Notes under the pieces: generated by a model
The model's input: only the letters and a program-made list of their open reading frames with translations
The model's database searches: none
Told to the model about the DNA's origin: nothing
Part shown: positions 6,728-24,205 of the stretch, in pieces
Numbering within the stretch: position 1 is the first letter of the stretch
How the letters are laid out: each line of letters starts with the position of its first letter
Position numbers and translations under genes: made by a program
NCBI GenBank assembly: GCA_048940765.1
Contig: JBHLOG010000002.1
Location: 20,254 to 84,253 of the forward strand
Reading direction: 5' to 3'
DNA length: 64,000 nucleotides
Source of the DNA: Promethearchaeota archaeon
GTDB lineage: Archaea; Asgardarchaeota; Lokiarchaeia; Sigyniarchaeales; SOKP01

Positions 6728-8068
6728 TTAATAGAATTCGCAATCAACCAAAAGTTGAGAAATATCCATAACTTTTATTGGAGAATGATCTTCATTTGCT
6801 ACTTGAAATAAATTGTTCTTACAGAAGACACAAGAACTAACTAACACTTCAGCACTAGTTTCTATCGCTTCTTTTAATCTATCTTCTCTTATTCGTATCA
6901 TACAAGCTCGAGTTTCAGCTAATCTGTCCCTACCCACTTCAACTGCAATATCACCATAAAGTGCCTTCACTCCTCCCCCAGCACCACAACACCAAGCCAT
7001 ATTTCGATTATGCTTCATCTCAAAGAGTTTTATTCCTTCAATCATTCTAATTAGTTCACGTGGTTCTTCATAAACTCCGCAATATCTACCTAAGTGACAT
7101 GGATCATGGTAAGTAATGAGTAGAGGGTCTTCTTTTGAGCGTTTTGTATATCTAATTTTAAGATTTTTTTCTTTTACAGTTTTTAGAACAAATTGGGTAA
7201 GATGATAAAGATCAAATTCAAGTTTATGATCTATTAATCTTGAATATTCGAGATTAAAAGTAGAAAAGCATCCAGAACATGAAAATACAACTTCTTTTAC
7301 TCCACTTTTTTTAACCATTTCATAATTATGTTTTACAAGTTTTAAGGCTTCATCCTCTAATCCTGTTCTAAATAAAACTGATCCGCAACATCTTTCTTCG
7401 GGAAAAAGAACAAATTCAATCCCTAATTTTTCTAAAACTTTGCTTGTTGCCGTGACTAACTCTTTATTTCTATAAGAGGAAGTACAACCAACAAAATAAC
7501 CAACTTTATAAGGTGTTTTTTTTATTGCAATATCAGAAGTATCTTTAGCACGTGAATATGCTTTAGCACCTTCTTCACATGACTGACGCCAATTAAATCT
7601 ATCAAGATGTTTTTCAAGAAAAGGATTATTATTTTCTAATATTGAGTTTTTAAGGATTTTTAACTTTTCTGGTACGGCTCCCTTTTTAATAACTTGTTTA
7701 CGGAAATTTTGAAAAACTTCTAGAGTGTCAACACCAACAGGACAAACCTCGTGACAATTTCCACATAACATACAGCGAAAAACGGAAGGAATGATTTCAT
7801 CTTTATCGAATTTAATATCTTTTCGATCCAAAGCTTTAATAATTCTATTACGACCACCGGCATAATCTGTCTCACTCCAAGACACATTATATACCTTACA
7901 AACATGGCGACAATATCCACAATGGGTACAACGCTCATAAGAATATTTTTCCTTCAGTGTTGAAGAAGCTTCAATAAGATTTTCTCTAGAAGGAGAAATC
8001 AACCCTGCAACAGGGGGACCAGAAGTTATTACATCCTTTAATTCCGACGACTCTTCACTATCATTCAT
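6728..8068 (-). CDS. Fe-S oxidoreductase, GlcF/HdrD-like (2x[4Fe-4S] + two CCG domains)
   Basis: CTHCGYCRHVC and CMLCGNCHEVCP cluster motifs, plus two cysteine-rich CCG-type regions (ERCCGS; YHDPCHLGR...WCCGAGGG). Confidence 0.8.
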   Translation of the reverse strand: MNDSEESSELKDVITSGPPVAGLISPSRENLIEASSTLKEKYSYERCTHCGYCRHVCKVYNVSWSETDYAGGRNRIIKALDRKDIKFDKDEIIPSVFRCMLCGNCHEVCPVGVDTLEVFQNFRKQVIKKGAVPEKLKILKNSILENNNPFLEKHLDRFNWRQSCEEGAKAYSRAKDTSDIAIKKTPYKVGYFVGCTSSYRNKELVTATSKVLEKLGIEFVLFPEERCCGSVLFRTGLEDEALKLVKHNYEMVKKSGVKEVVFSCSGCFSTFNLEYSRLIDHKLEFDLYHLTQFVLKTVKEKNLKIRYTKRSKEDPLLITYHDPCHLGRYCGVYEEPRELIRMIEGIKLFEMKHNRNMAWCCGAGGGVKALYGDIAVEVGRDRLAETRACMIRIREDRLKEAIETSAEVLVSSCVFCKNNLFQVANEDHSPIKVMDISQLLVDCEFY

Positions 8069-8191: not shown

Positions 8192-9571
8192 TTAAAATAA
8201 TTTATACAAGAATTTCGCTGTATTGAATAATAAAGATATCCTCCAGAATTTCATCTTAGCTTCAATTATTCTATATGAATTAAATAAGTGCTTGGGATCC
8301 AATTTATTTTTTAATAGTTTTTTCCTATTTACTTCATCACGTTTATATTTATGTAAATAGAAAGTATTAACAATTCCTATAGTGTAGAGCCTATCTCCTT
8401 GACTAAATACTCGCACTGATAAATCATGTAAAAATGCCTTTACTGCAAAGAATTCCCGAGTTTTATTAATGTCAGTTAAACCGAAAATTTTAACACGAGT
8501 CCATCCTTTCTCTCCTGAAATTGCATATGAAGCAGTTCGAAATTTGTATTTTTTCCTCTTTTTTACATAATGTTCAATAAAAGGCTCTAATCTCTCATCA
8601 GATATCCAGTACTCTTGAAATATTAAATTTCGTGTTGATAATCCAATAGATACCTCAGCATCGCTAATATCTCGCCATTTTTCCTTTAAATAGGAGTTTT
8701 CGATATCAAATGCATTCATTTTTGAAGCTATATTTTTAACCATTGATATGCTTTTTGATGTTTCTTCAGGATCATCATAAAATACTGCCCAGACTAACCA
8801 TTCCTGTTTTGGAAAATTGACATGTGAATATTTTTCAAAATTTCTTTCTGAAATTGAAAGGAAGAATGGCTTATTTGGAACTTCATCTTTAACTTTTGAA
8901 TAAAAGCTAAAAGCTTGGGTGAGAGAATTAAAACCATAACCAATTATTTCTAATGAAGTTTTGAGTGTGGTTACTGATAGTTCAACATTTGCAATAGCAC
9001 CATATATTCCATAAGTACCAACAATATCGTCAAGAGAGATTTCATCGTGAGACTCTCTTGAAATATTGACAATCGTACCGTCGGGTCGAACTAAATCTAG
9101 AGAAATAATTGAATCTTTCATCGAACCATATTTCAAAACACCAATCCCTGCTTTTCCAGGAGTAGCAATAAAACCACTTACACAAGAAGTTTTAAAGCTA
9201 GTTGGAAACACTTTCGGTTCAAGCCCTTGATCTGCAAGTGCTTCTATTAAATTCAACCAAGAAATTCCACTTCCAACCTTAACAGTCATTTTTTCCTTAT
9301 TTATTTCAAGAATTTTATTTATCCTGCGTACATCTATAATAACCCCTCCTTTTGAAGGTGTAGCTGAGGAAAAACAAGAAGTACCAGCAGCTCTAATTGT
9401 AACTGGAATACCTAATTCTCTACATTTTTTTATCGTCAAAGAAAGTTCTTGAGTATTTGCTGGACGAACAATATAACTTGCAAGATATTTTTTCTTAAAT
9501 TTATAATGATAGGATGGTAGTGATGTTAGATCAGCTGAAGCAGATTCGAGTTCATATGGATTAATACTCAC
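8192..9571 (-). CDS. FAD-linked oxidase (GlcD / D-lactate dehydrogenase-like)
   Basis: A PCMH-type FAD-binding N-domain (VRPANTQELSLTIKKCRELGIPVTIRAAGTS...GGVIIDVRRINKILEI). It is adjacent to the GlcF-like gene on the same strand. Confidence 0.8.
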   Translation of the reverse strand: MSINPYELESASADLTSLPSYHYKFKKKYLASYIVRPANTQELSLTIKKCRELGIPVTIRAAGTSCFSSATPSKGGVIIDVRRINKILEINKEKMTVKVGSGISWLNLIEALADQGLEPKVFPTSFKTSCVSGFIATPGKAGIGVLKYGSMKDSIISLDLVRPDGTIVNISRESHDEISLDDIVGTYGIYGAIANVELSVTTLKTSLEIIGYGFNSLTQAFSFYSKVKDEVPNKPFFLSISERNFEKYSHVNFPKQEWLVWAVFYDDPEETSKSISMVKNIASKMNAFDIENSYLKEKWRDISDAEVSIGLSTRNLIFQEYWISDERLEPFIEHYVKKRKKYKFRTASYAISGEKGWTRVKIFGLTDINKTREFFAVKAFLHDLSVRVFSQGDRLYTIGIVNTFYLHKYKRDEVNRKKLLKNKLDPKHLFNSYRIIEAKMKFWRISLLFNTAKFLYKLF

Positions 9572-9696: not shown

Positions 9697-10563
9697 TTAT
9701 GTAAATAAAAATCCTGATAAGAAAGCACCCCACCAACAAATTAACGTGATATATCCCGTAACTTTAGCTGGTTTACGCTCTGCAGCAATTCCAAACAACA
9801 TACTTAATAATCCTGTAAGTAAACCTAGACCTCCTAAAATTATATGAGTCCAATGAAAATCTAAAGAAAATGAAACCCAGATAGCAGGATTCTTCCATAT
9901 TAAAGTTAAAACATTTACAAGTGTTAATATCCAAGAAGATCCTGCTAAAATTCCATGAGTTTTAACAAATTTACTTTCATTTATTAATACTAATATTGTC
10001 CCGAGAGTTAGGAAAAGTAACGCTGGTAAGCCAAGAAACATTCCAAAATGATCAAAAATGTTAAAAGGAGCACGTGGAACTATAACACCTCCAACATTAA
10101 CATTAATCCTTTGGTAAGCAAAATTTATTTGACCACTTGCGTCATTCCCTGCAATTATGAAAATTAAGTTATAACTTTCCTCTGCTGGGGCTGTAATATT
10201 AAATTCTACAGTGATTGAATTACTTGATGGATCGAGATCATAAATAGAAGTTTCATTAATTCTTTCAGTAGTTGGTAATATTTCGAAAATATCATAAGAA
10301 GGCTCAAAATTTTGTTCTACCAGTCTTCCTGGAATTACTTGAATGAATACATTTGTACCAGTAGCAGTAACATTAAAAACTAGACTTGTTGAGGGATCTG
10401 TTAGAACATCTCCGGTAATTGTAGACTCAATTGTATATCCTGCTGAATCATGACATAAATCATGAGACATTCCATAGCCAGGTCTACCTGTTGCGTACAT
10501 AATTACCAACATCGGCAAAATAGATATAATTATTAAAAAAACTATAAGGGTTCTCTTATTCAT
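9697..10563 (-). CDS. Membrane protein: signal anchor, HxxCH motif, beta-rich exodomain, C-terminal 4-TM His-bearing domain
   Basis: An N-terminal TM is followed by GYGMSHDLCHDSAG (10450-10464 encodes HDLCH). Many NxT/S sequons. Four C-terminal helices have His at the helix ends (FDHF, KTHG, DFHWTH). It is a paralogue of ORF 16471-17148 in the N-terminal part. Confidence 0.7.
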   Translation of the reverse strand: MNKRTLIVFLIIISILPMLVIMYATGRPGYGMSHDLCHDSAGYTIESTITGDVLTDPSTSLVFNVTATGTNVFIQVIPGRLVEQNFEPSYDIFEILPTTERINETSIYDLDPSSNSITVEFNITAPAEESYNLIFIIAGNDASGQINFAYQRINVNVGGVIVPRAPFNIFDHFGMFLGLPALLFLTLGTILVLINESKFVKTHGILAGSSWILTLVNVLTLIWKNPAIWVSFSLDFHWTHIILGGLGLLTGLLSMLFGIAAERKPAKVTGYITLICWWGAFLSGFLFT

Positions 10564-10861
10564 TGTTCTTATTCGATTTTATTTTAAATACAGTTGCTTA
10601 TTTCTATATTTATAAAATATTATAAATTTTCTTCATATATTTTAAAAATAAGATTTTCTTTAAAATATTAAAGCAAAATTTACACCAATTTTCCAAAAAT
10701 AATTAATTGTTTATTATTGTTATAATTAAATTCCTAAATTTCAAATTAATAAACCTTAAACAAGACTGAAAGCCTTATAAACATTAATTGTTTTTATCAA
10801 TCTTCTCAATTTAATTTTGTTTAGATTGTGATTAGTTAAAAGGAGTTCGATTTCATATATC

Positions 10862-10876
10862 GTTTCAAATTGAAAC
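10862..10876. promoter_or_regulatory. Perfect 7-1-7 palindrome GTTTCAA-A-TTGAAAC (candidate operator)
   Basis: Read directly. It lies in the intergenic region upstream of the 9697-10563 gene. Related sites occur at 17197, 18610, 18884 and 19737. Confidence 0.3.
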
Positions 10877-11051
10877 TATTTAATATAATTAAGTTAGAAA
10901 TTGAAATTTTAGGTAATAGAACGGTTTAAAGTAGCCAGTTTTGACAAATCTTCTATATAATATGAGACTTAGAGACTTAAGGTCGATTGATGAAACCTTA
11001 TCCTTTTACTTTTAATAAAATTACAATTTATTTAACAAAATGGGTTTTTAA

Positions 11052-11647
11052 ATGAGGTCAAATAGAAAAATTAAATCTTTATTAATTACATTAATAATAT
11101 TATCATCTATTATGGGATTCGCTTTCGCAAGAACCTCATCCCAAATGCTAGAGACTTAAAAATTTATAAGATTTTTGCATTTGATCCTGTTGGTAATATA
11201 AATTCCTTTCAAGACAATATTACAGTTATAGACACAAACAGTCTAACTTTTTTTAATTTAACGAAATCTGATGAATCTATTATAATAGGGCAATCTATAG
11301 ATATTCAAGTGGAAATTACAGAATTCTCTGATATCAGTAATGTTTTCATAGAATTGGAGAGTACAAACCATTCGATGGTTCATACTATCGGATATACGTA
11401 GGAACATAAAAATTGGATTCTAAAAATTACAGGCGAATTATCCTTTACAATACACGCAAAGGATAACAATAATGTTTGGAATTTAATAGCGGGGACAATT
11501 TTAGTTACAGAGTAATCACCAGATTTAACCAGAATACCGATGTTTAAAATGACTGAAATTTTAGTAATAACTGGATTGATTGGATTAATAACTGCTGGAA
11601 TATTATTGATAATAACAACAACAAAAATCAAAGGATTTTTTGCTTAA
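11052..11647 (+). pseudogene. Decayed gene for a signal-peptide / C-terminally anchored surface protein
   Basis: ATG 11052 gives MRSNRKIKSLLITLIILSSIMGFAFA...ET then TAA. The reading continues in another frame (IYKIFAFDPVGNINSF...) through in-frame TAG (11399) and TAA (11513) to a TM anchor (ILVITGLIGLITAGILLII) and stop at 11647. Confidence 0.55.
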
Positions 11648-11740
11648 TTAATTTTTTCTTATTTTTACTTAATTTAATTTATTGAATCTTTAAATTATCA
11701 AAAAAAATTTTATTTAAAATTTTGAATTTTTTTATTTTAT

Positions 11741-13459
11741 GTGGTTATTATGAAGTTTGAGGAAATAACGCGAAAAAAAATATTTATTATTTATTTAGGA
11801 ATGATTTTTGGATTTTTTGTAGCTCTACCATTAATATTTAACTTAATTGAATACAATTTTAGAGTTCTCCTTATATCAACAATGGGTAATTACATAATCT
11901 TCATTCTTATCATAATTTTGATAGTTGATGCTTTTTATTTGATTTTTAAACGTCAAAATCATTATTTTTTTTCATTTATTAACATGTGGTTAACAATACT
12001 CTTATTTTCACTAATGATATATAGTTTCCTAAATAATATCTATGAAATAGTATATGTTATGAATTACAGCAATTCTACACTTCCACTAATATATAAAATA
12101 GTTGCAATCTGGGCGGGAGAAGAAGGGTCGATTATGACATGGATGGTATTTAATTCTATCATAATAAATTTCTATCGAAATAAGAATCAAAACAAAGATG
12201 ATGTTGTATTTATACGTTCTGTTATTATTTCATTATTTATATCTATAATATTTTTAATTATCTTATTTTCATTAAATCTATTTGAAGTTGATTCACCCCC
12301 CGTTTTTCCTAATGGTCAAGGATTAAACCCATTATTAATATCTCCATTTATGATATGGCACCCGTTCTTTACATTTATTGCTTACGCCATTTTCTTAGTC
12401 CCCTTTACTATTGTAATTGCAGAAACAATTACTCGTAAAAGGAAATTGTTGGGGGAATACCAATTGAATTTTTATAATTTTTCTTTAAAATTTGGATGGC
12501 TAGTTCTCACTTCAGGCATTGGTTTAGGCGCATATTGGGCTAAAATTGCATTAACTCCTTGGGGTAGATATTGGGGTTGGGATCCTGTTGAAACAGTTTC
12601 ACTTATTCCATGGTTTTTAATAACAGCTTTCTTTCACACTATTATCTTCAAAAAGAAAAATCCAATATTAATAAAAATAAATGTGAGTTTGATTTTTGCA
12701 TCAATAGTGTTTTCAACATTGATTACAAGAGGCGGGGGGTTAAATTCTCTTCATGCGTTTACTGGAGGTGCTGAGTTAATTACATGGGTAATAATTTTAG
12801 GTCTTATTTTGGTCTTTCTTTCCCTTTATGTAATCTATATTGTATTAGATTATTCAATGGGAGAGTATCGAAATAAAAAGCTTTTTTTTGATTACTTGAG
12901 TTATTTACTTTTATTTGCTTTAGCTTTGGTGTGTATTTTTGGTCTTTTAATTCCACCATTTACCTTTTTCCTTTCAAATTTTCTCCCAATAAATATTATT
13001 TTAATCGATATAGATTATTTTATCATAACAACCTTAATTTTATCTACAGGTTTAGCTATATCACTTACATTTTGTTCATTATGGGAATATTTCGAGATTA
13101 AGTGGATAGGATTAGTTATACTTATAGGATTTTCAATTCAATCAGTGCTTTCGTTTATACTTGTAATTACCTCTAACATATGGATAAATCCTGTTTTATT
13201 TATTTATTTAATATCATTATTTTCTTCCCTATTCAAATTGGTAAAAAATTTCAATATGAAAAAGGGAGTAAAATACTTTTTCAGGTTGAATTCAAAAACA
13301 ATAATTCATGCAGGGATTTCCTTAATCCTTGCTGGATTTTTAATGAGTTCGAATTATCAAGACTTTTTTTTCATTCCAGGATTCGTACTGCTATTAATAG
13401 GAATAATTCCTTCAATTATTATCACTTTTTTTCCAATGAAAAAAGTAATTGAGGCGTAA
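11741..13459 (+). CDS. ccmF: Cytochrome c maturation protein CcmF (heme lyase component)
   Basis: AIWAGEEGSIMTW, LNPLLISPFMIWHP, the Trp-rich motif WGRYWGWDPVETVSLIPW, and conserved His in AFFHT and NSLHAF. Polytopic membrane protein. Confidence 0.85.
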   Translation: MVIMKFEEITRKKIFIIYLGMIFGFFVALPLIFNLIEYNFRVLLISTMGNYIIFILIIILIVDAFYLIFKRQNHYFFSFINMWLTILLFSLMIYSFLNNIYEIVYVMNYSNSTLPLIYKIVAIWAGEEGSIMTWMVFNSIIINFYRNKNQNKDDVVFIRSVIISLFISIIFLIILFSLNLFEVDSPPVFPNGQGLNPLLISPFMIWHPFFTFIAYAIFLVPFTIVIAETITRKRKLLGEYQLNFYNFSLKFGWLVLTSGIGLGAYWAKIALTPWGRYWGWDPVETVSLIPWFLITAFFHTIIFKKKNPILIKINVSLIFASIVFSTLITRGGGLNSLHAFTGGAELITWVIILGLILVFLSLYVIYIVLDYSMGEYRNKKLFFDYLSYLLLFALALVCIFGLLIPPFTFFLSNFLPINIILIDIDYFIITTLILSTGLAISLTFCSLWEYFEIKWIGLVILIGFSIQSVLSFILVITSNIWINPVLFIYLISLFSSLFKLVKNFNMKKGVKYFFRLNSKTIIHAGISLILAGFLMSSNYQDFFFIPGFVLLLIGIIPSIIITFFPMKKVIEA

Positions 13460-13610: not shown

Positions 13611-14324
13611 ATGTTCACATCAAATAACACAATAATAACTTGTAATAATGTCTCAAAACAATTTGGATATTTTTTTGCGTTAAGAAAAATTTCTTTTAAA
13701 ATTAGAGAAAATACGGTTTTTGGAATTGCGGGGGCAAATGGAGCAGGTAAAACAACATTAATTAAGATTTTATCGGGATTGCTCAAACCAACTTTTGGTG
13801 AAATTATACTCAATGGAATGAATTATGAGGATAATTCTGACATTATAAAACAAAATATTGGAATTAATACTGATGAATCTTTTCTATTTCAAGAATTAAC
13901 TATTTTTGAAAATTTAAAATATTATGCTAATTTGCATTTGAATTTCGAGAAAAAGAATCTTGAGACTAAAATTAAGCATTATTGCAATAAATTCAATTTA
14001 ACAGATTGGATCAACGAACCTGTTAGAATTTTATCTCATGGAATGAAACAAAAAGTAGAATTAATTAGAGTCTTAATACATGATCCATCAATTCTATTCT
14101 TGGACGAGCCATTTTCGGGTTTAGATTACAATGCAACCCAAATGTTAATTAATTTTTTTAGAGAAATAAAAAATGATAAAAATATATCGATAATTCTTAC
14201 AACGCATAAAATTGATGTATTCCAGCAACTTTGTGATGAATTAATCATTTTAAAGAAAGGAAGAATCAGTAAAGCCTTTTCACGTGATGAATTAAATAAG
14301 TATGAAATTAAGTCATATTTTTAG
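13611..14324 (+). CDS. ccmA: ABC transporter ATP-binding protein, CcmA-like heme exporter subunit
   Basis: Walker A GANGAGKTT, signature LSHGMKQK, Walker B ILFLDEPFSGLD. Located between ccmF and ccmB. Confidence 0.8.
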   Translation: MFTSNNTIITCNNVSKQFGYFFALRKISFKIRENTVFGIAGANGAGKTTLIKILSGLLKPTFGEIILNGMNYEDNSDIIKQNIGINTDESFLFQELTIFENLKYYANLHLNFEKKNLETKIKHYCNKFNLTDWINEPVRILSHGMKQKVELIRVLIHDPSILFLDEPFSGLDYNATQMLINFFREIKNDKNISIILTTHKIDVFQQLCDELIILKKGRISKAFSRDELNKYEIKSYF

Positions 14325-14333
14325 GGGGTATAT

Positions 14334-15062
14334 TTGTTGAAAAATGAGAAAATAAAATTCAAATCAAAATTAAGATTACTGAAAGTAATATTATCTAAAG
14401 ATATTAAATCAGAACTCCGACAAATTAATGATTTATTTTCAATTTTTCTTTTTGATATAATCTCAATCTTCATATTTTCGTCAGTTTATAATTTCGGAAC
14501 TCAATATCAGAATATGCCGATGGAAATTTTTGTTATTGAAAACTGGCTTATAATTTTTTTTACACTCATTTATATTATGACTAAACTCTTCGTAAAGGAG
14601 AAAGATACTGGAACTTTAGGAGGGCTTATTTCTTCCCCCGCATCAGCAAACTTAATTCTTATTAGTAAAACCATTTTTTGCTTTATCTTATTGAGTTTCG
14701 TTGAAATCATTTTATTTCTTTTCAGTTTTTTTATATCAGTACCATCGATTAGCAATTTTAATGCAAATCAGTTATTGATTTATTTAAGTCTTGGAGTATT
14801 ATTACCAACATTAGATTTATCTATATGCGGGAGCTTTGTTTCTGCTTTTTCGATGTATGTTAAAAATAAATCCTTTATTTTACCAATTTTGTTATTTCCT
14901 TTAATTCTACCAATTATTACTCCTATCATATCGATAAATATAAAAATTTTAGAAGGAGAATTAATATCAAATCTATATTACGAAATACTATTTTTTAGTG
15001 CGCATATAATTCTCATGAGCTCAATTATAGCATTAACTTCGGAAGCTCTTTTGTATGATTAA
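14334..15062 (+). CDS. ccmB: CcmB-like heme exporter permease
   Basis: A ~6-TM, 242-aa protein 9 nt after ccmA. Assigned by size and synteny. Confidence 0.6.
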   Translation: MLKNEKIKFKSKLRLLKVILSKDIKSELRQINDLFSIFLFDIISIFIFSSVYNFGTQYQNMPMEIFVIENWLIIFFTLIYIMTKLFVKEKDTGTLGGLISSPASANLILISKTIFCFILLSFVEIILFLFSFFISVPSISNFNANQLLIYLSLGVLLPTLDLSICGSFVSAFSMYVKNKSFILPILLFPLILPIITPIISINIKILEGELISNLYYEILFFSAHIILMSSIIALTSEALLYD

Positions 15063-15069
15063 ATAAGAT

Positions 15070-15417
15070 CTAACTACATTGTGTAAGAATCTGGTTTGCA
15101 TTTAAAACCAGAGATGAACTAAATACTCCTTTTACAACAACTTGAATTCCATTTTCCATATCAGTTGAAGGAGTTAAACCATTTATATCTATATAAATAC
15201 TATGTCCACTTTCAGTTAAATTAAAATCACTACCAGCAAATCCTTGTACAATACCTATAACTTGAATCTCTTTATTTTCATATTTGGAAGGATTCAAGGC
15301 AACTTGAGAAACTGTGAGATAAGGACGTGCAGTTGATGTAAGCAATGTAATTATAACAATAATTGAGATAATAATTCCTGCGATTGCAATAATTTTTGTT
15401 TTTTTCAAATTCATCAT
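15070..15417 (-). CDS. ccmE: CcmE-like heme chaperone, Cys-type, ending ...LTQCS
   Basis: An N-terminal TM anchor plus an OB-fold-sized domain (IQVIGIVQG...GIQVVVKGVF...LNANQILTQCS). Cys (15076-15078) occupies the position of the heme-binding His of bacterial CcmE. Confidence 0.7.
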   Translation of the reverse strand: MMNLKKTKIIAIAGIIISIIVIITLLTSTARPYLTVSQVALNPSKYENKEIQVIGIVQGFAGSDFNLTESGHSIYIDINGLTPSTDMENGIQVVVKGVFSSSLVLNANQILTQCS

Positions 15418-15579: not shown

Positions 15580-16311
15580 TTACTCCTCTATCAACCTTTT
15601 TTGTATAATTTTATCTAGTTTTTCTTTTGCTTTATCTAATTCTCCTAATCTTTGAATAACATAAAAAAATAATATGGTTATTCCAATTAAATTAAATAAC
15701 AACATGACTATTTTCACTGGATCCCAATAAATATTACCAGGCTCTCCAGGAGTTGGATTAATTAGGGGATGCAAGCTTGTAAATATAATTGCCGAGAAAT
15801 AACTTAAGGGAATTGTAGGAAATAAGGCAATACCTAAAATTGAAGATAATTTTGCTCTTTTTTCTTTATCTTCAACCATACTCCTAAAAATTAAATATGC
15901 TAAATAACAAAGAAGTAATATTAAAGTCATAGTCTGTCTACCATCACTCCATTGCCAATAAATATTGTTATAATCTCCAGAAGTAGAATTGTACCATAAA
16001 GATCCAGTAATTAATGTAAATGCAGTAAAAAATACTCCAACTATTATGCTATTGGTGCCCAACCGATTCCATTTTAATTCTCGTTTATTCAGATAGAGAA
16101 TATGAAATAGGAAACTAAGACCGTATGATAAATATGCAAGCCATGCTCCCGAAACATGGTAAAAAAAAATTATATATACTATTCGATTGGGACTTCCCCA
16201 TACAATAAGGTTAAAGGAAGTCAATATTAAAATTAGAAATAAATTAATCACCAAGATTGTCAATGAAATAATTAATAGGAAGTTAGTCCTGAATAATTTT
16301 GGAATATTCAT
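15580..16311 (-). CDS. ccmC: Cytochrome c maturation protein CcmC
   Basis: 243 aa, 6 TM. Conserved His in FFYHVSGAW and TSLHP. The Trp-rich motif is IYWQWSDGRQT. Confidence 0.8.
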   Translation of the reverse strand: MNIPKLFRTNFLLIISLTILVINLFLILILTSFNLIVWGSPNRIVYIIFFYHVSGAWLAYLSYGLSFLFHILYLNKRELKWNRLGTNSIIVGVFFTAFTLITGSLWYNSTSGDYNNIYWQWSDGRQTMTLILLLCYLAYLIFRSMVEDKEKRAKLSSILGIALFPTIPLSYFSAIIFTSLHPLINPTPGEPGNIYWDPVKIVMLLFNLIGITILFFYVIQRLGELDKAKEKLDKIIQKRLIEE

Positions 16312-16470
16312 GATAATATAATAAAATTATAATTCTGATACATTTTAATAAAAATACGAAATTTTCTGTTTATAAGGAGTATTCCTATTTTTCACATTTA
16401 AGACATTTTTTTTAACTTTTAAAATTTAAGATTATAAAAAAAAAATAAAATTAAATTTAGTATTTTGGAT

Positions 16471-17148
16471 TTACAATTCTTTTTTCCTCATTCGCTTTCT
16501 TACTGTTAATATTAAAACAGTTGTTACCGCTACACTGCTACCAATAATGATTGTTAAAATGCCTCCCGAAATAGTATCTGTGCCTGTACCAGTAGTGCCT
16601 GTAACAGTAATCTCGATTAAACTTTCAACATAAGTAATATTATAATAAGATCCATCCGTCTGATTCATTCCTGCTATTGCCACCGCATAAAGATCATATG
16701 TTCCAGCTTTGCTAGGAGCAATAAGGGCAAATTTATTATCATCGTCAGAAGGATCATAAGATCCATAACTATCTACCTGTTCTCGTCTATTTAATGTTTG
16801 GTTAGCAAGAGATGATGTAAATAACCCGTTATCACCTTGATATCCTGGTACGCCTAAAGTGAATCTACCAGCATAAGGAGCTAAATTAGCCTCTGTAAAG
16901 TTAAGGATATCTACTTCCAAGGTAAAATGCTGTAAGGGAGATAAATCTCCAGTCACATTAATAGATAGTACCAAAGTTCCATTTACACTAGCTTTAGTAT
17001 TAGCTGAATTATGACACATACCATGAGTTCCACCTTCTCCATCGTTAATCCATCTATATAGATATTCTTGATATCCCACAGCTGCACCTATAATTCCTAT
17101 AAGTAAGGCTGAAAAAATCAATAGTGAAAGAATTTTAGTTTTTCTCAA
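16471..17148 (-). CDS. Exported, C-terminally anchored protein with an HxxCH motif (candidate non-canonical heme protein)
   Basis: A signal/anchor helix is followed by EGGTHGMCHNSAN (17011-17025 encodes HGMCH). Then comes a beta-rich glycosylatable domain, a TGTGT linker, a TM and a basic tail. It lies upstream of ccmC on the same strand. Confidence 0.7.
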   Translation of the reverse strand: MRKTKILSLLIFSALLIGIIGAAVGYQEYLYRWINDGEGGTHGMCHNSANTKASVNGTLVLSINVTGDLSPLQHFTLEVDILNFTEANLAPYAGRFTLGVPGYQGDNGLFTSSLANQTLNRREQVDSYGSYDPSDDDNKFALIAPSKAGTYDLYAVAIAGMNQTDGSYYNITYVESLIEITVTGTTGTGTDTISGGILTIIIGSSVAVTTVLILTVRKRMRKKEL

Positions 17149-17467: not shown

Positions 17468-17713
17468 TTAAATAAGTATTTCATAAAATCTTATTCTTTT
17501 ATCTCTTTTATCACCATATTTTCGAATAAAATTTAGATCATATAACTTTCTTAAAGAATAAACGACTGTCCTCTTCGGTAGAAGTGATCTTCTCATAATG
17601 TTTTCTTGAGTTAATGGTCCATTTCTTTTCAGTAGATATAAAATAAATTTACAAGAGGGAGGTAATGAGATTAATCTTTGTTCTGTTAAAGAATCTTTTA
17701 TTATATTCATCAT
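17468..17713 (-). CDS. Small winged-helix transcriptional regulator (MarR/TrmB-like)
   Basis: FILYLLKRNGPLTQENIMRRSLLPKRTVVYSLRKLYDLNFIRK is an HTH-wing pattern. 81 aa. Confidence 0.55.
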   Translation of the reverse strand: MMNIIKDSLTEQRLISLPPSCKFILYLLKRNGPLTQENIMRRSLLPKRTVVYSLRKLYDLNFIRKYGDKRDKRIRFYEILI

Positions 17714-17930: not shown

Positions 17931-18494
17931 TTAGAAATTACCACATCCATTACATTTCCCATCAAGAAATGCGGCACATGCTTTACATATATTTTCACAT
18001 TTATGTTCTTTGCTTTCACCACTAAAAAGCTTAATTGGAAGAAATTTTGGTACTAATACTTCAGATGCAAATATCGTTGCAGAATGTAGTATTCCTTCTT
18101 TGTTGGTTGGACCACAATAATTGATATATCTACGTAAAACGTCAATATCTTGGCCTATTACTCCAAAGATCAAGTTGTATTGCCCAGCCACATGAGCTAA
18201 TAAAAAAACTCTGGGACATTCCGCATAAGCATCAATAATTTTTTGTACTTCATTATAGCTTCTCATTTCAATTAAAATAAAAGCAATATAATAATTTAAG
18301 CTCTTAGGACTTATATTTCCTTGAACCTTTAGAACTCCTGAGTCCTCTAATTTTGTAATTCTCTTTGCAATACCTGCATGGCTCATTGTTTCTTGATTTG
18401 ACTTTAATACAATTTTACTTAAAGAACTTAAACTTTCACGACCATTTTCAAATAAAGATTTAAGAATCTGCTTGTCAATTCGATCCAAAGTCAT
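17931..18494 (-). CDS. Lrp/AsnC-family regulator with a C-terminal 5-Cys motif
   Basis: N-terminal HTH (LDRIDKQILKSLFENGRESLSSLSK...GIAKRITKLEDSGVL), a RAM-like middle part, and the C-terminus KCENICKACAAFLDGKCNGCGNF. Confidence 0.75.
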   Translation of the reverse strand: MTLDRIDKQILKSLFENGRESLSSLSKIVLKSNQETMSHAGIAKRITKLEDSGVLKVQGNISPKSLNYYIAFILIEMRSYNEVQKIIDAYAECPRVFLLAHVAGQYNLIFGVIGQDIDVLRRYINYCGPTNKEGILHSATIFASEVLVPKFLPIKLFSGESKEHKCENICKACAAFLDGKCNGCGNF

Positions 18495-18622: not shown

Positions 18623-18899
18623 AACCACACATATTTATTATATATGATAGATAAACTATTATTTATCAATTTAATTAGAAAAACAATAATAATAACAAGG
18701 CATTATATAAATGAAAAATTAATTATTGGACATCAAATCTAATTAAAGGTTTACTTATAAATATAATATTTCTTAATAGAAAATTGTAAAACGTACATCA
18801 AATTTTGAAATATTGTCGAGCTAACTTTTTATAAACGACAAATTTTAAAAATTGGTAATTAAGATCTAATTAATTAAATTAAGTATCAATTTGAAAATT

Positions 18900-19463
18900 A
18901 TGCTATTAGATAATATTGATAAACAGATTTTATTTGAATTGTTCAAAGAAGGACGTCAAAGTTTAACAAACTTGGAAAAAGTTATATATAAATCAGGTGA
19001 TGAAACAATGAGCCATACAGGTATTGCAAAGAGAATTACGAAATTAGAGGACTCAGAAGTTCTAAAGGTTCAAGCGAATACAAATATCAATACGCTCCAA
19101 TATAAATCTCTATTTCTACTAATCGAGATGAGTAATTATGAGGAAGTACAAAATATAATTAAAGCTTATCAAGATTGCCCACGAATATTTTTATTAGCTC
19201 AGGTAACAGGTCAATATAATTTAATATTAGGAATTATAGGGCAAAATATTGATGTTCTACACAGATATATTAATTACTGTGGACCCACGAATAAAAAGGG
19301 GATACTTCACTCCGCTACTATATTCGTATCTGATTTTATCACCCCTAAGTATTTGCCAATTAATCTTTTCAGCCAAGACAGTAAAGAAGAAAAATGTGGA
19401 AATATATGTAGTGACTGTGCTGCCTATCTTGATGGGAAGTGTAATGGATGTGGTTCTTTTTAA
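18900..19463 (+). CDS. Lrp/AsnC-family regulator with a C-terminal 5-Cys motif (paralogue of 17931-18494)
   Basis: MLLDNIDKQILFELFKEGRQSL... aligns end to end with the divergent paralogue, by eye about two thirds identical. C-terminus KCGNICSDCAAYLDGKCNGCGSF. ATG 18900 is preferred over TTG 18891 by alignment. Confidence 0.75.
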   Translation: MLLDNIDKQILFELFKEGRQSLTNLEKVIYKSGDETMSHTGIAKRITKLEDSEVLKVQANTNINTLQYKSLFLLIEMSNYEEVQNIIKAYQDCPRIFLLAQVTGQYNLILGIIGQNIDVLHRYINYCGPTNKKGILHSATIFVSDFITPKYLPINLFSQDSKEEKCGNICSDCAAYLDGKCNGCGSF

Positions 19464-19885: not shown

Positions 19886-21199
19886 ATGGCAGTAAAAGTA
19901 GCTTTTATGCAATTAAGTGACTGTTGGGGCTGTCATCAATCTCTTTTAAACGCTCATTTAGGTTTGTTGCCAGTTCTACCAGCATTAGAGATTGTATATT
20001 GGCCAGCTGTAGTTGATTTTAAACATGATTCATTGAAACAAAGAGACCCAGGTTCAATTTTAGTTGGTTTCATTGAAGGATCTATCCGTACAAATGAAGA
20101 TTATGATAATGTTAAACTGATGAGAGAAAAATGTGCTTTAGTAATTTCTTTTGGTAGCTGTGCCTGCTATGGAAATGTACATGGATTAGCTAATCAATGG
20201 AATATAGAGGAATTAGTAAAGAGAAAATTCTCTCAAGTTGAAAGCATAGCTGATGAGAGTGGTGGAGAACCGACCCTGCATACTCCTGGTTTTAGAGAGA
20301 AGGTTGTCCCTGTTGATGAAGTAATAAATGTTGATGCATATATATCTGGATGTCCACCAAAGCCAGAGCAAATTATTAGTAGTGTCGCATTTTTATTAGG
20401 ACAAAAACCATTTCCCATGAATGATCTTGCATTTTGTAATGATTGTGCAATAAAAAATGATTGTTTATTGGATCATGGAGTAATGTGTTATGGTTCAATT
20501 ACCAGTATCGGTTGTGATTTAAAGTGTACTAGTGACAAAAAACCTTGTGTAGGTTGTTTTGGTCCAGCGAAAACTGTTGATTCAAGAGCAGAAAAATTAA
20601 ACAACATGTCTAAAAATTTGAGTTCAATTAGTCTGGGTGACAAAAAAAATGTATATGAATTTTTAACATTGTTTTTAAATGTTCCTTTAATGGCCGGATT
20701 TGATTTATCTGGAGATATCTTAAAACAAATTAAAAAACATGGAACTCCGGATACTCCATTAGCTAATCTACCTCCAACAACAGAAGAAATTTCTACAAAC
20801 TTATTAGAATTTTTGAAGGAAAATCCTGATTTTCATGATATTTCAAATGTATGCGATACGTGTCCTCGAATTATTGGTAGTAAGTCAACTATGACAAGAG
20901 TCAAAAGAGATTATGAAGGGCTTCCAAATATGGAAGATTGTCTAATTGAACAAGGATATATCTGTATGGGCCCTGTAACTAAAGCTGGCTGCGGTGCTTT
21001 GTGTATAAAGGTTAATGCTCCATGTACTGGTTGTTTTGGTCAAACAGTATGGGGCGTTAATCAAGCAGAAAGGTTCGCTGATACGGTACTCAAACAATTT
21101 AATGTTAGCTTATCAAAAGAAGAATTACTGTCTCAGGTAAAAGATCCAATTGGTACATTTGAAAAATTTACTTTAGCATCAAGAAAAGGAGGTATATAA
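19886..21199 (+). CDS. mvhG: [NiFe]-hydrogenase small subunit (MvhG-like, group 3)
   Basis: N-terminus KVAFMQLSDCWGCHQS, then FGSCACYG and ISGCPP (proximal cluster ligands). Two C-terminal Cys modules each end in PCxGCFG. Confidence 0.85.
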   Translation: MAVKVAFMQLSDCWGCHQSLLNAHLGLLPVLPALEIVYWPAVVDFKHDSLKQRDPGSILVGFIEGSIRTNEDYDNVKLMREKCALVISFGSCACYGNVHGLANQWNIEELVKRKFSQVESIADESGGEPTLHTPGFREKVVPVDEVINVDAYISGCPPKPEQIISSVAFLLGQKPFPMNDLAFCNDCAIKNDCLLDHGVMCYGSITSIGCDLKCTSDKKPCVGCFGPAKTVDSRAEKLNNMSKNLSSISLGDKKNVYEFLTLFLNVPLMAGFDLSGDILKQIKKHGTPDTPLANLPPTTEEISTNLLEFLKENPDFHDISNVCDTCPRIIGSKSTMTRVKRDYEGLPNMEDCLIEQGYICMGPVTKAGCGALCIKVNAPCTGCFGQTVWGVNQAERFADTVLKQFNVSLSKEELLSQVKDPIGTFEKFTLASRKGGI

Positions 21200-21202
21200 A
21201 AA

Positions 21203-22507
21203 ATGGCGAAAGAAATAGAAGTAGAGCCAGTCACTCGATTAGAGGGACATGGTGGTTTAAGATTAGTTTTAGGCGATGATGGAAAAATACAAGATGTTCA
21301 ATTCAATATCACTTCCACAAGATTTTTTGAGAAGTTTCTTGAAGGACGTTATTGCGAGCATATTCCTAGAATAACTCCGAGAATTTGTGGTATATGTCCA
21401 ATTCCTCATCATTTAACTCCAACTAAAGCGGTGGAAGATGCATGGCAGGTTGAAATTCCTACTCCTGCGTATAAATTACGACAATTATTGCAGAATGCTA
21501 AACAATATTCATCACACGCTTTACATTTCTATGCACTTGCTGCTCCTGACTTTTTATTGGGACCTATGGCTGATCCAGCATTAAGAAATGTGGTACATGT
21601 AATTAATCAAATGCCAGATGTAGGTGCAATGGCATTAAAAATGATGGATTTTGGTCAGAAATTATGTGCTGCAGTAGGAGGGAAATCTGTACATCCTATT
21701 TCTGCTATCGTTGGTGGTATGAAAAAGCCTTTAGATGAAGATGTTCGAGATTTGTTTTTAAAACAAATTGCAGATCAGGTTGAATGGACTAAGAAAACCG
21801 TTGATATTGGTTTAAAAGTAGTTGAAGATTATTGGGATGTTGTGGCTAACGTAGGAGTTGTACCCACTTACTATGCTGGTATGACGAAAAATGGAGTTCA
21901 TGACATTTATGATGGAGATCTTCGCATAGTATCTCCAAATGGGGAGAAGTTCGATTATCCACCTCAAAAATATTTGGACGCTCTAGGTGAACATATCCCC
22001 AAGCATTCTTATGCAACTCACATGTACTATAAGCCAGCTGGATATCCTGAGGGAATATATAGAGCAAATACTTTAGCAATGATTAACTGTGCAGATAAGA
22101 TGGCAACTCCTTTAGCAGATGAAGCGTTGCAGGCTATGAGGGCAAAAGTTGGTAACATATCCCATCACACATTCGCATATCATTGGGCTCGATTAATTGA
22201 ATTAGTAGAATCTATTGAAGTAATCGCAACATTACTTCAAGATGATGATATTGTTAATCCTGATTGTAAGACTTTAGATGTACAGCCTAGAGAAGGAAAT
22301 GGTGTTGGTCTCACAGAAGCTCCAAGAGGAATACTCTTATATAATATATGGTCCGATGCTGAAGGAATTTGTAAAAAGGCAAATCTTTTAGTTGCAACAA
22401 ACCATAACATCGCAGGAATTGAAAAGACATTGAAGCATGTCGCTAAGCAAGTTTTTGAGGACAAGGCGCTTGATGGTTTAAAATTACCAGACCCATGGAT
22501 AAAATAA
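21203..22507 (+). CDS. mvhA: [NiFe(Se)]-hydrogenase large subunit (MvhA/VhuA-like), lacking the C-terminal Ni-binding motif
   Basis: RLEGHGG and RICGICPIPHH (N-terminal RxCGxCxxxH Ni ligands). The ORF ends ...LKLPDPWIK without DPCxxCxxH. Confidence 0.9.
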   Translation: MAKEIEVEPVTRLEGHGGLRLVLGDDGKIQDVQFNITSTRFFEKFLEGRYCEHIPRITPRICGICPIPHHLTPTKAVEDAWQVEIPTPAYKLRQLLQNAKQYSSHALHFYALAAPDFLLGPMADPALRNVVHVINQMPDVGAMALKMMDFGQKLCAAVGGKSVHPISAIVGGMKKPLDEDVRDLFLKQIADQVEWTKKTVDIGLKVVEDYWDVVANVGVVPTYYAGMTKNGVHDIYDGDLRIVSPNGEKFDYPPQKYLDALGEHIPKHSYATHMYYKPAGYPEGIYRANTLAMINCADKMATPLADEALQAMRAKVGNISHHTFAYHWARLIELVESIEVIATLLQDDDIVNPDCKTLDVQPREGNGVGLTEAPRGILLYNIWSDAEGICKKANLLVATNHNIAGIEKTLKHVAKQVFEDKALDGLKLPDPWIK

Positions 22508-22549
22508 ATTAAATATAATGAAAATTAAAGAAAGAAGTGAACAAAAAAG

Positions 22550-22699
22550 ATGAGTGATATACCTGAAGGTGTAGTAAATCTCTTAGAAATGGTAGTTCGC
22601 TGTTTTGACTGTTGACTATCATGCGCTGCTCATATAACAGTTGTTGATGAGCGGGGCAAAGAGATATACTCTCGAGAAATGAACGTAGGTTTAGGATGA
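22550..22699 (+). CDS. vhuU: VhuU-like mini-subunit carrying the C-terminal Ni-binding motif with a predicted selenocysteine (in-frame TGA 22613-22615)
   Basis: Reads MSDIPEGVVNLLEMVVRCFDC-TGA-LSCAAHITVVDERGKEIYSREMNVGLG-TGA. With TGA read as Sec, this restores D-x-[C/U]-x-x-C-x-x-H, which is missing from the upstream large subunit. Confidence 0.7.
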
Positions 22700-22750
22700 A
22701 TGTCCAATAAAAATGATTGAAATTGGACATAACTGCCCCTTGCGTGGGGT
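22700..22750 (+). promoter_or_regulatory. Structured 3' region of the vhuU-like gene (candidate SECIS)
   Basis: A 9-bp perfect stem 22700-22708/22722-22730 has a 13-nt loop AAAAATGATTGAA. A CCCC/GGGG hairpin (22736-22739/22746-22749) follows. It sits in an unusually long ~100-nt intra-operon spacer. Confidence 0.3.
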
Positions 22751-22794
22751 TAAAACCTACAAATAAATAAATCATTCAAAAAATAAGAAAAAAG

Positions 22795-23310
22795 TTGAAA
22801 AAAATGGAAACAAATTTCGAATTTAGAAAACAAGTTATGGATTATCATATTGGGCCTGATGTAATTAAATATTGTTATCAATGCAGTAGATGTGCTGATA
22901 ATTGTCCTGTAACTGCGGTTACAACTGATTTTTATACAACCACAGGATATAATCCTAGAAGTAATATCTTAGCAGCATTATTAGGATATAAAGATTTACT
23001 CCTTGGAGGAGACGAGTTAGGGATTTGGGGGTGTACTGTATGTGATACATGTGATGAAGTATGTCCTCAAAAGATTGAACTTACAGAAATCTTTACTTTT
23101 CTAAAAAATCAAAGTATTGCTTTGGGTAAAGGTCCAGAATTTATTTATTCCCAAGCGAAAGCTATATTTGAAAATGCTAAAGCAATTCCATCACAACCTG
23201 CTATTGAGAGACGGAGAGAACAATTAGGTATACCAGCTATAATAAATCCGGAAATAAATGAAGTACAAACATTATTAAAGAATATTGGAGCTGAGAAGAA
23301 ATTAAAATAA
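22795..23310 (+). CDS. hdrC: Heterodisulfide reductase subunit C (HdrC)
   Basis: CYQCSRCADNCPV and CTVCDTCDEVCPQ, about 170 aa, directly upstream of hdrB. The ATG at 22804 may be the true start. Confidence 0.8.
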   Translation: MKKMETNFEFRKQVMDYHIGPDVIKYCYQCSRCADNCPVTAVTTDFYTTTGYNPRSNILAALLGYKDLLLGGDELGIWGCTVCDTCDEVCPQKIELTEIFTFLKNQSIALGKGPEFIYSQAKAIFENAKAIPSQPAIERRREQLGIPAIINPEINEVQTLLKNIGAEKKLK

Positions 23311-23326
23311 TTCGAGGGTAAAAAAA

Positions 23327-24205
23327 ATGACAGAATATAAAATGTTTGAAGGATGTACTATTGGAAATAGAATCCCGTTTATTGAAGCTGCCTCAAGAAA
23401 AGTTTTCGATAAATTAGGAATAGAAACTTCTCAAGCGCCATTTTCTTGTTGTCCAGATCCAACTGGAATGAAAAGTTTCGATAATGATGCTTGGTTGGTA
23501 ATAGGAGCTCGAAATCTTTGTCTTGCTGAAGCTGAAGGGAAAGATATAGTATCCTTATGTAATGGCTGTGCTAATACTTTAAGAGGAGTTCAACATCAAT
23601 TGAAGCATGATAATTTGAAGAAAGATAAGGTTAATTCAGAGTTAGCAAAAATTGGCAAGGAATTCAAAGGTTCTATTGATATAAAACATTTTGTCGATGT
23701 ATTGAAAAATGAAGTTGGCAAGGATAAGATCAGAGATGCTATCACAAAGCAATTAAGTGGTTTGAGGGTAGCGGTCCATCCTGGTTGCCATTATATGCGA
23801 CCTGCTGAATGGATGGAGTCTGATGATCCGATTCGACCAACTAATTTAAAAGAATTAGTAGCTGCTTCTGGCGCTACAGTCGTAGATTATGAAGAATTAG
23901 CACTGTGTTGTGGTGCAGCAGTAACAAATGCCTATGAGGAGCATGGAATGGCAAACTTAAAGAAAAAAATGGATAATATTAAAAAGACCGGAGCAGATGT
24001 TATTGTTGTAAATTGTCCTGCATGCTTTCAGCAATTTGATACTAGACAAAGAGATCTAGGTAAGATGTTTGATACTGAATACAGTATTCCAGTGTTATAT
24101 TTAACTGAATTATATGCTTTAGCAATGGGATTTAGTCCAGATGAAATAGGATTAAAATTTCATCGTACAAGATTATCTGGTGTATTAGAAAAGCTTGGTT
24201 TATAA
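23327..24205 (+). CDS. hdrB: Heterodisulfide reductase subunit B (HdrB), two CCG domains
   Basis: PFSCCPDPTG...LCNGC and HPGCHY...ALCCGAA...VVNCPACFQQFD are CCG-type cysteine motifs. Confidence 0.85.
   Translation: MTEYKMFEGCTIGNRIPFIEAASRKVFDKLGIETSQAPFSCCPDPTGMKSFDNDAWLVIGARNLCLAEAEGKDIVSLCNGCANTLRGVQHQLKHDNLKKDKVNSELAKIGKEFKGSIDIKHFVDVLKNEVGKDKIRDAITKQLSGLRVAVHPGCHYMRPAEWMESDDPIRPTNLKELVAASGATVVDYEELALCCGAAVTNAYEEHGMANLKKKMDNIKKTGADVIVVNCPACFQQFDTRQRDLGKMFDTEYSIPVLYLTELYALAMGFSPDEIGLKFHRTRLSGVLEKLGL

Follow-up and report, generated by a model that had tools for sequence, protein, structure and literature searches.

A candidate single-cysteine c-type cytochrome with an immunoglobulin-like domain beside a variant System I cluster in Lokiarchaeia

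Which proteins receive heme from the cytochrome c maturation (ccm) genes of Lokiarchaeia? The question is raised by a stretch of 64,000 nucleotides (hereafter the window) from a Promethearchaeota archaeon (Lokiarchaeia; Sigyniarchaeales; SOKP01), located at positions 20,254 to 84,253 of contig JBHLOG010000002.1 in GenBank assembly GCA_048940765.1. The window has a GC content of ~27% and carries a ccm cluster. At one edge of this cluster lies an open reading frame (ORF) at 16471-17148 on the minus strand, which starts with TTG and encodes 225 amino acids. We call it the target gene. The original prediction, made from the letters of the sequence, had proposed that an HGMCH motif in its product is a possible single-cysteine heme attachment site. 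Our computational follow-up suggests that the site probably binds heme covalently via its single Cys (probability roughly 0.7). This reading draws on the conservation of the motif, homology to a family with CxxCH, export signals, and the co-variation of the motif-bearing domain with ccm genes.

Relatives of the target protein numbered 55, all from Asgard metagenome-assembled genomes (MAGs) or sediment metagenomes. At least 155 relatives were found for a second window protein on the other flank of the ccm genes (9697-10563), whose family is called family 2 below. A profile search over 1.84 billion representatives returned 88 clusters, and a scan of GTDB genomes with strict patterns found 4 species. 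Homology between the two window proteins extends across the motif and the beta domain (BLASTP, E=9e-4), and hhalign of the target-family against the family-2 alignment gave 95% probability (E=2e-8). When 43 superfamily sequences were aligned (22-58% identity, mean column identity 22%), C45 and H46 of the target were the only invariant columns. The Cys-His pair was present in 54/54 target-family and 119/119 family 2 homologues with an intact N-terminus. C45 and H46 are likewise invariant in the target-family alignment (A1), where H42 is at least 90% conserved. In the family-2 alignment (A2) the corresponding invariant residues are C37 and H38, and H34 is conserved to at least 90% with 2 or 4 residues between His and Cys. 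The spacing of the upstream His thus varies (HxxCH, HxxxCH and Hx4CH), the last form occurring in 21/120 family 2 homologues. Nearly all superfamily clusters that cover the N-terminus show a signal peptide followed by [FW]-x-G-x-x-H-x(2-6)-C-H, and ~90% of the 43 superfamily members have the upstream His at a spacing of 2-6 residues.

The check that the original prediction had called for, conservation of the H-x-x-C-H block among homologues, therefore came out in its favour for the Cys-His pair and largely for the upstream His. Two related claims fared less well. The block G-x-[ST]-H-x-x-C-H-[DN]-S-A can be read in both window proteins, as had been said; its [DN]-S-A part is unconserved among homologues. 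The motif had also been placed at the same distance from the signal anchor in both proteins, and this proved inexact, as the Cys lies ~20 residues past the hydrophobic segment in the target and ~14 in the family 2 protein, distances that are similar and unequal. Exceptions to the otherwise invariant pair are three close relatives (P0176, P0177 and P0244) with 1-2 residues between Cys and His (C-A-H, C-G-H, C-G-D-H). Adhesin chemistry of the thioester or isopeptide kind and a Cys-His catalytic dyad were considered for the pair and rejected, since the superfamily has no conserved residue that could act as partner.

The first-Cys position of a canonical CxxCH is occupied by His in ~85% of Asgard members. 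In eight superfamily representatives the upstream His is replaced by Cys, giving CxxCH (four), CxCH (three) or Cx4CH (one), and all eight variants align with the HGMCH site of the target. The canonical forms are P0198 (CNNCH), P0237 (CDTCH), P0250 (CLNCH) and P0252 (CDSCH). P0252 has a weak DOMON-like region, and its gene is followed 6 bp downstream by one for a cytochrome b of the Ni_hydr_CYTB family, which scores above the cut-off (37.2 bits). The NCBIfam model NF041895 (choice-of-anchor V) gave sub-threshold matches in 26/43 superfamily members (best E=5e-10), and its best matches were the members that bear CxxCH or CxCH. Against a cut-off of 42 bits, the target scored 13.9, the family 2 protein 16.6 and the best Asgard relative 39.6, all below it.

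We scored in-silico point mutants against this model. For P0198 the wild type scored 39.6 bits, and each substitution in the motif lowered the score: C1H to 31.2 (a loss of 8.4 bits), C1A to 31.6 (8.0), C2A to 30.4 (9.2) and H-to-A to 30.3 (9.3). For the target (wild type 13.9 bits), H42C raised the score to 22.5 (+8.6) and H42A gave 14.5, while C45A or H46A abolished the match. These scores show that NF041895 has a conserved C-x-x-C-H and that H42 of the target falls on its first Cys. The mutation scan is the most direct support for HxxCH as the equivalent of CxxCH. Together with the aligned CxxCH relatives it supports the proposal that the motif is CxxCH with the first Cys replaced by His, a replacement that is itself a difference from NF041895. 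NF041895 is the sole library family detectably related to the target. The alignment spans both the motif and the beta domain, and, as in the target family, an exported domain is followed by alternative C-terminal sorting anchors. The linkage to ccm genes and the fusion to a membrane bundle found here lie outside the NF041895 family definition. Judged by sequence, the target is a remote homologue of NF041895 and not a member. NF041895 is a curated model and, to our knowledge, has not been characterised experimentally.

The layout of the target protein agrees with an exported, anchored domain. The ORF and its translation confirmed the 225-residue protein with its N-terminal signal or anchor helix and HGMCH motif, and the predicted beta-rich, N-glycosylatable domain was recovered as an immunoglobulin (Ig)-like sandwich with N-x-S/T sequons (six in the protein). 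The expected TGTGT linker and C-terminal transmembrane (TM) anchor were also found, with a hydrophobic tail and a basic end. C45 is the sole Cys. Y26, Q27, E28 and Y29 are invariant in A1, and by the -3/-1 rule the signal peptide would be cleaved after G25. A lipobox at the Cys was rejected; the Cys lies ~20 residues past the hydrophobic core, in the wrong context. The C-terminus looks like a sorting-signal anchor. Many paralogues end with PGF, a TM helix and a basic tail, and the target has SGG in the PGF position. The Loki-CTERM model NF033507 (cut-off 19.9 bits) did not match the target, gave at most 17.9 bits for PGF paralogues, and matched 3/43 superfamily members weakly. Neither Pfam nor NCBIfam gave an above-threshold match for the target, and PDB sequence searches with the target and the family profile returned nothing significant. 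The deposited protein with 100% identity, from a Promethearchaeota MAG, is annotated as 'hypothetical protein'. A run of ~11 T is seen on the coding strand ~30 nt past the stop codon of the target gene (16420-16470). It is possibly an archaeal terminator, in which case the target would be transcribed largely alone, ahead of ccmC-D-E.

The second line of evidence is the association with ccm genes. The original prediction had placed the target gene at the head of ccmC-D-E, and the same order, with a target-type gene directly upstream of ccmC-D-E, was found in 12 loci (the window, L003, L005, L007, L008, L009, L016, L017, L018, L022, L025 and L041). At L034 only a regulator lies upstream of ccmC-D-E. 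A metagenome scan for family 2 yielded 56 loci. Where at least 1.5 kb upstream of a full-length family 2 gene was available, ccmF lay there in 22/22 loci, and where at least 8.5 kb was available, ccmA, B, C and E were present in 9/9. A further 15 loci encode homologues that consist of the membrane domain only, lacking the domain with the Cys-His motif and Ig-like sandwich (the CH domain), and these are followed by the same genes for a flavin adenine dinucleotide (FAD)-binding subunit and a Fer4/CCG subunit. No ccm genes were seen in the five membrane-only loci with adequate flanks (0/5; L061, L064, L065, L067, L071). Fisher's exact test for ccm genes with versus without the CH domain gave ~1e-5, computed over loci that are not phylogenetically independent. 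From 22/22 against 0/5 it follows that the ccm genes track the CH domain and not the dehydrogenase module. Homologues widespread in genomes without Ccm had been named as grounds for abandoning the heme reading. What we found is a family tied to ccm genes, and membrane-only homologues that lack both the CH domain and the ccm genes.

The ccm loci also offer no competing candidates for heme attachment. An exported ORF with a canonical CxxCH was found in none of them, and the three CxxCH motifs of the window are all in cytoplasmic iron-sulfur (Fe-S) proteins. Exported ORFs with the Cys-His motif number 2-6 per ccm locus, including anchored proteins of 200 residues and multi-repeat surface proteins of 800-955 residues. 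The CH domain also forms the N-terminus of giant surface proteins with many repeats, the longest of 1705 residues.

The maturation genes themselves are unusual. In every related locus ccmC and ccmE are separated by a ccmD-like ORF of 45-51 residues. CcmE was confirmed to be of the Cys type in this cluster, as predicted, and it ends with ...[TI/V]QCS-stop in 19/19 Asgard loci, the Cys being penultimate with no Tyr after it. Where ccmF is present, its product carries the WGWD motif along with H and W residues that hardly vary. Pfam and NCBIfam revealed no CcmH, CcmI or CcmG in the ccm cluster of the window. The absence of CcmG/H had been offered as support for single-cysteine attachment; it holds for this cluster, and it is general in archaea (PMC9084895), so it is nonspecific as support.

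The family 2 protein places the CH domain within a redox operon. The AlphaFold2 (AF2) model of this protein (predicted local distance difference test score, pLDDT, 82) shows an Ig-like sandwich followed by four membrane helices. Four His of the membrane domain are invariant (H172, H203, H237, H240), and a WW pair is also present. The order family 2, FAD subunit, Fe-S/CCG subunit is kept in nearly all loci. Comparison of the membrane domain with known cytochrome b families (b561, Ni_hydr_CYTB, DUF420) gave no significant similarity, and its assignment to Ni_hydr_CYTB or b561 was unsupported (Pfam E>=0.04, hhalign probability 0.2%). The membrane-only homologues (L057, L061, L064-L071) keep the conserved His, and some have extra N-terminal helices. 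In the deposited annotation the 9697-10563 gene (P0056, 267 aa) begins only at Met22, which leaves out the signal peptide; homologues of ~290 aa back the longer ORF.

Several observations weigh against covalent heme at this site. The divergent target homologues of L001 and L010 lack ccm genes over a distance of 10 kb; next to them lies a family-2-like gene, accompanied by genes for Fer4 and CCG proteins. In L005 and L006, ccmF is not found within 10 kb of the ccm genes, with CH-domain genes and ccmABCDE intact, and in L003 it is reduced to a C-terminal remnant of 113 residues (L003:13667-14008). CcmF may be dispensable, or encoded elsewhere, in these three loci. The upstream His is neither universal nor fixed in spacing, and Cys/His interchange at the first position with variable spacing also typifies metal-binding sites. 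Judged as a c-type cytochrome, the target has an exported variant motif of the XXXCH type and an adjacent maturation system, but neither the family nor the superfamily alignment shows a conserved Met or His besides H42 that could be the sixth ligand. The heme of the target could be five-coordinate or have a non-standard ligand. When both AF2 models were compared with PDB by Foldseek, the matches were generic Ig-like, nanobody and PapD-like folds only, with no heme protein among them; cytochrome f, DOMON, NEAT and cupredoxin folds did not stand out. Finally, single-Cys XXXCH proteins are very poor substrates of E. coli Ccm and are trapped as CcmE-heme-cytochrome complexes (PMC3268396), so the Asgard machinery would have to differ. 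For resolving the single-Cys step we infer two obvious candidates, the truncated CcmE and the conserved His upstream of the Cys.

In the AF2 model of the target, built with A1, the strands of the Ig-like sandwich have pLDDT 80-90, and residues 27-47, which include the motif, fall below 50. Outside the motif segment the AF2 models show no region of low confidence; a segment that folds around a cofactor would be expected to look like this. As modelled, the structure neither supports nor contradicts heme binding.

In the main alternative, a surface domain of Ig-like or cupredoxin-like fold would bind a single Cu, Fe, Ni or Zn ion through the motif and be linked to the ccm genes indirectly; like the CopC, YcnI and cupredoxin families, it might traffic metal or hold a small redox centre. 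The interchange of His and Cys and a spacing of 1-6 residues are typical of metal ligands, the beta-sandwich is generic, and the missing sixth ligand is no difficulty for such a site. Very weak profile matches to CopC structures were also obtained (E ~0.6-0.85), but these are non-significant and map to the C-terminal strands rather than to the motif. An adjacent Cys-His as the only invariant pair would give a metal too few and sterically awkward ligands, whereas it equals the minimal c-type heme signature. The curated NF041895 model requires C-x-x-C-H, and a metal site also sits badly with the way ccm genes accompany the CH domain, and not the membrane or dehydrogenase module (22/22 versus 0/5). 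We consider a metal site unlikely. A heme bound non-covalently would make the target a surface receptor, hemophore or chaperone like the Gram-positive NEAT proteins, with Ccm acting as heme exporter or chaperone. NEAT proteins likewise combine an Ig-like domain with a sorting signal at the C-terminus, and some clusters have ccmABCDE and no ccmF. Yet this leaves the invariant Cys just before the ligand His with no role, and it does not account for the full CxxCH in relatives or for ccmF adjoining family 2 in 22/22 loci. The surrounding genes encode Fe-S/FAD dehydrogenase and hydrogenase subunits and not transporters, and we regard this explanation as quite improbable.

The target could instead be a Ccm accessory factor that stands in for the missing apocytochrome handler CcmH/CcmI, and so not a substrate at all. 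Its position at the head of ccmC-D-E in 12 loci would suit this role, as would the lack of CcmH and CcmI in archaea (PMC9084895). The occurrence of 2-6 paralogues per locus, of giant surface proteins and of a membrane redox fusion is the pattern of a cofactor domain, however, and an accessory factor would leave these loci with no other plausible Ccm substrate, which makes the idea very improbable. Equally improbable is a cofactor-less glycoprotein of the surface or S-layer in which the Cys-His pair is structural or serves intermolecular cross-linking. It would fit the generic Ig-like fold, the many sequons, the sorting-type anchor and the resemblance of large paralogues to adhesins with Big/filamin-like repeats, but it leaves unexplained the co-variation with ccm, the equivalence to CxxCH, and why a dehydrogenase operon should hold the domain fused to a membrane bundle with four His. 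Three points weigh most in this comparison: invariance confined to the adjacent Cys-His, the CxxCH of the curated relatives, and the co-variation with ccm. The metal site accounts for none of them, and each of the other three readings falls short on two or more. Covalent attachment of heme through a single Cys accounts for these features and is the reading that we follow below.

From these results we infer a scheme that also covers how heme is attached and ligated, how the protein is cleaved and sorted, and in which direction and between which partners electrons flow. The target would be exported via its N-terminal signal peptide, and a variant System I would load heme in the order CcmABC(D), Cys-type CcmE and, where present, CcmF. 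A single thioether would form at C45, H46 would be the proximal iron ligand, and H42 would take the place of the first Cys of a canonical CxxCH. The heme would then sit on the N-glycosylated Ig-like sandwich, tethered to the surface by the C-terminal helix that resembles a sorting signal. The operon suggests an electron path from a cytoplasmic FAD/Fe-S (GlcD/HdrD-like) dehydrogenase through family 2, as a putative membrane cytochrome, to surface CH-domain proteins such as the target. An outward electron-transfer role for the target is put forward tentatively, at somewhat less than an even chance. It is possible, though doubtful, that a Lokiarchaeia-type System I variant natively matures (H)XnCH cytochromes with the assistance of the His, and that these glycosylated surface proteins, wired to the cytoplasmic dehydrogenase through the family 2 protein, give syntrophic archaea of this type a direct electron route to partners or minerals. 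Such a variant would be marked by a CcmE ending in Cys-Ser-COOH, a CcmD-like subunit, and a CcmF that is sometimes dispensable. The upstream His may replace the missing Cys chemistry, for instance by forming a His-vinyl bond like that of bacterial CcmE, or it may resolve the intermediate in which heme is bound to CcmE.

The coordinates of the features are collected in Table 1. The 1.2-kb gap between the family 2 gene and ccmF (10564-11740) holds a decayed gene for a large CH-domain surface protein, whose counterpart is intact in the closest relative, L007. In tblastn with the 955-aa L007 protein, aa 1-30 and aa 789-953 matched with 48% identity (E=1e-42), and no intact ORF was found. What remains is a piece of the signal peptide (11052-11141) fused to the final repeat with its anchor (11144-11638); the CH domain and ~750 aa have been deleted. 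On the other side, the two Lrp/AsnC-like regulators form a divergent pair, are 69% identical and end with a C-terminal tail of C-x3-C-x2-C-x7-C-x2-C. MarR and Lrp/AsnC-like regulators adjoin the cluster in L003, L005, L007, L008, L009, L018, L034 and L041, and they may be metal- or redox-sensing regulators of it. The identification of the pair as the siroheme decarboxylases AhbA/B was rejected, as only generic Lrp/AsnC matches were obtained. The flanks of the cluster (85-2387 and 19886-24205) encode MvhD (FlpD), a polyferredoxin, the small and large subunits of a [NiFe]-hydrogenase, and HdrC/HdrB-like proteins, an energy-metabolism island typical of Lokiarchaeia. Genes for putative heme proteins (EB_dh, Ni_hydr_CYTB and small b561/DUF4079/DUF420-like proteins) were also noticed near CH-domain genes, at L005:7204-8358, L017:1-392, L012:1729-2448 and L001:14882-15304. 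The neighbourhood is redox- and heme-related.

Table 1. Features of the target gene, the ccm cluster and neighbouring genes; positions are counted from the first nucleotide of the window.
Feature	Position	Strand	Basis
Target gene, candidate single-cysteine c-type cytochrome, exported, Ig-like	16471-17148	-	ORF, sequence, homologues
N-terminal signal peptide/anchor, residues 1-25	17074-17148	-	MRKTK + hydrophobic core + AVG, then YQEY
HGMCH (H42-G-M-C45-H46), proposed heme attachment site	17011-17025	-	Translation, conservation, NF041895 mutation scan
Ig-like beta-sandwich, residues ~50-182, NFTEA and GDN motifs conserved, six sequons	16603-17001	-	AF2, sequon count
TGTTGTGTD linker, C-terminal TM helix, basic tail RKRMRKKEL	16474-16602	-	Sequence
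ccmC	15580-16311	-	Pfam Cytochrom_C_asm 2.6e-17; TIGR01191
ccmD-like, 50 aa	15422-15574	-	Pfam CcmD E=1.1e-4, 22.6 bits (cut-off 25.6)
ccmE, Cys-type, ends ...TQCS-stop	15070-15417	-	Pfam CcmE 6.6e-8
ccmB	14334-15062	+	Pfam CcmB 7.1e-11
ccmA, ABC ATPase	13611-14324	+	Pfam ABC_tran 1e-31; conserved synteny
ccmF, heme lyase	11741-13459	+	Pfam 1.5e-24; TIGR00353 1e-41
Pseudogene remnant of a large CH-domain surface protein	11052-11638	+	tblastn with 955-aa L007 protein
Family 2 paralogue: signal peptide, Cys-His motif, Ig-like domain, 4-helix membrane domain	9697-10563	-	Alignments, AF2
HDLCH (H34-D-L-C37-H38), family 2 motif	10450-10464	-	Translation
GlcD-like FAD-binding dehydrogenase subunit, co-directional with family 2	8192-9571	-	TIGR00387 3e-31
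Fe-S/CCG-domain subunit, TfrB/HdrD/GlcF-like	6728-8068	-	NF004898 4.3e-56 and others
MarR-type regulator	17468-17713	-	Pfam
Lrp/AsnC-like regulator, one of a divergent pair, Cys-rich C-terminus	17931-18494	-	Pfam
Lrp/AsnC-like regulator, one of a divergent pair, Cys-rich C-terminus	18891-19463	+	Pfam

In the literature we found no description of the target family, of an HXXCH heme motif or of Asgard ccm substrates. A novel family with a link to ccm (PMC10849945) is a ccmD-like gene of another lineage. Surveys of Asgard cytochromes count CXXCH only (PMC9723726), so that proteins of the target type would score as non-cytochromes. If our reading is true, Asgard archaea may hold cytochromes that are invisible to CxxCH screens, and ~90 'hypothetical protein' clusters (at 50% identity) would gain a testable function. 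Natural prokaryotic XXXCH substrates would then stand beside a modified System I that has to complete the step at which the bacterial system stalls, offering a handle on the roles of the CcmE C-terminus and of CcmF/H. Discussions of how Lokiarchaeia dispose of electrons usually centre on H2 and formate. With surface cytochromes and a membrane-bound dehydrogenase, direct interspecies electron transfer would become testable in Lokiarchaeia, which bears on models of eukaryogenesis.

How does the proposed system compare with known ones? Like CYBDOM (b561-DOMON) and HdrE/Ni_hydr_CYTB proteins, family 2 combines an outward beta-sandwich, here a putative heme domain, with a His-bearing helical bundle, and it has a cytoplasmic Fe-S/CCG partner subunit. 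It differs in that only one of its four invariant His is on the cytoplasmic side, and the classical di-heme arrangement is not evident. Cytochrome f has a signal peptide, a CxxCH near the mature N-terminus, a beta-sandwich and a C-terminal anchor, and its mature protein starts with [YW]-P. The target shares this layout, and many of its paralogues would start with [YW]-P after the predicted cleavage; the likeness is in architecture only, as cytochrome f has CxxCH and neither sequence comparison nor Foldseek detected similarity to the target. By analogy, N-terminal amine ligation might be imagined for the target family, which is pure speculation.

The mitochondrial cytochromes c and c1 of Euglenozoa have a single-cysteine (A/F)XXCH, belong to the all-alpha class I, and are made without System I. 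Single-thioether heme c chemistry is thus already known, and the domain described here is a remote branch of the uncharacterised NF041895. As proposed for the target, the Euglenozoan proteins have one thioether at the Cys beside the ligand His and another residue in the first-Cys position. The resemblance is in chemistry only. The target has an Ig-like sandwich, a conserved His with variable spacing, and a System I variant next door.

Archaeal System I, characterised in Methanosarcina acetivorans, consists of CcmABCEF with a CcmE that is universally CXXXY and without CcmD (PMC9084895). The cluster in the window resembles it in having CcmA, B, C, E and F, a CcmE of the Cys type, and no CcmH, I or G. 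In contrast to the M. acetivorans system (PMC9084895), CcmE ends here with QCS-stop instead of CXXXY, an ORF with a sub-threshold match to CcmD is present, ccmF is missing from some clusters, and the presumed Asgard substrates carry a single Cys.

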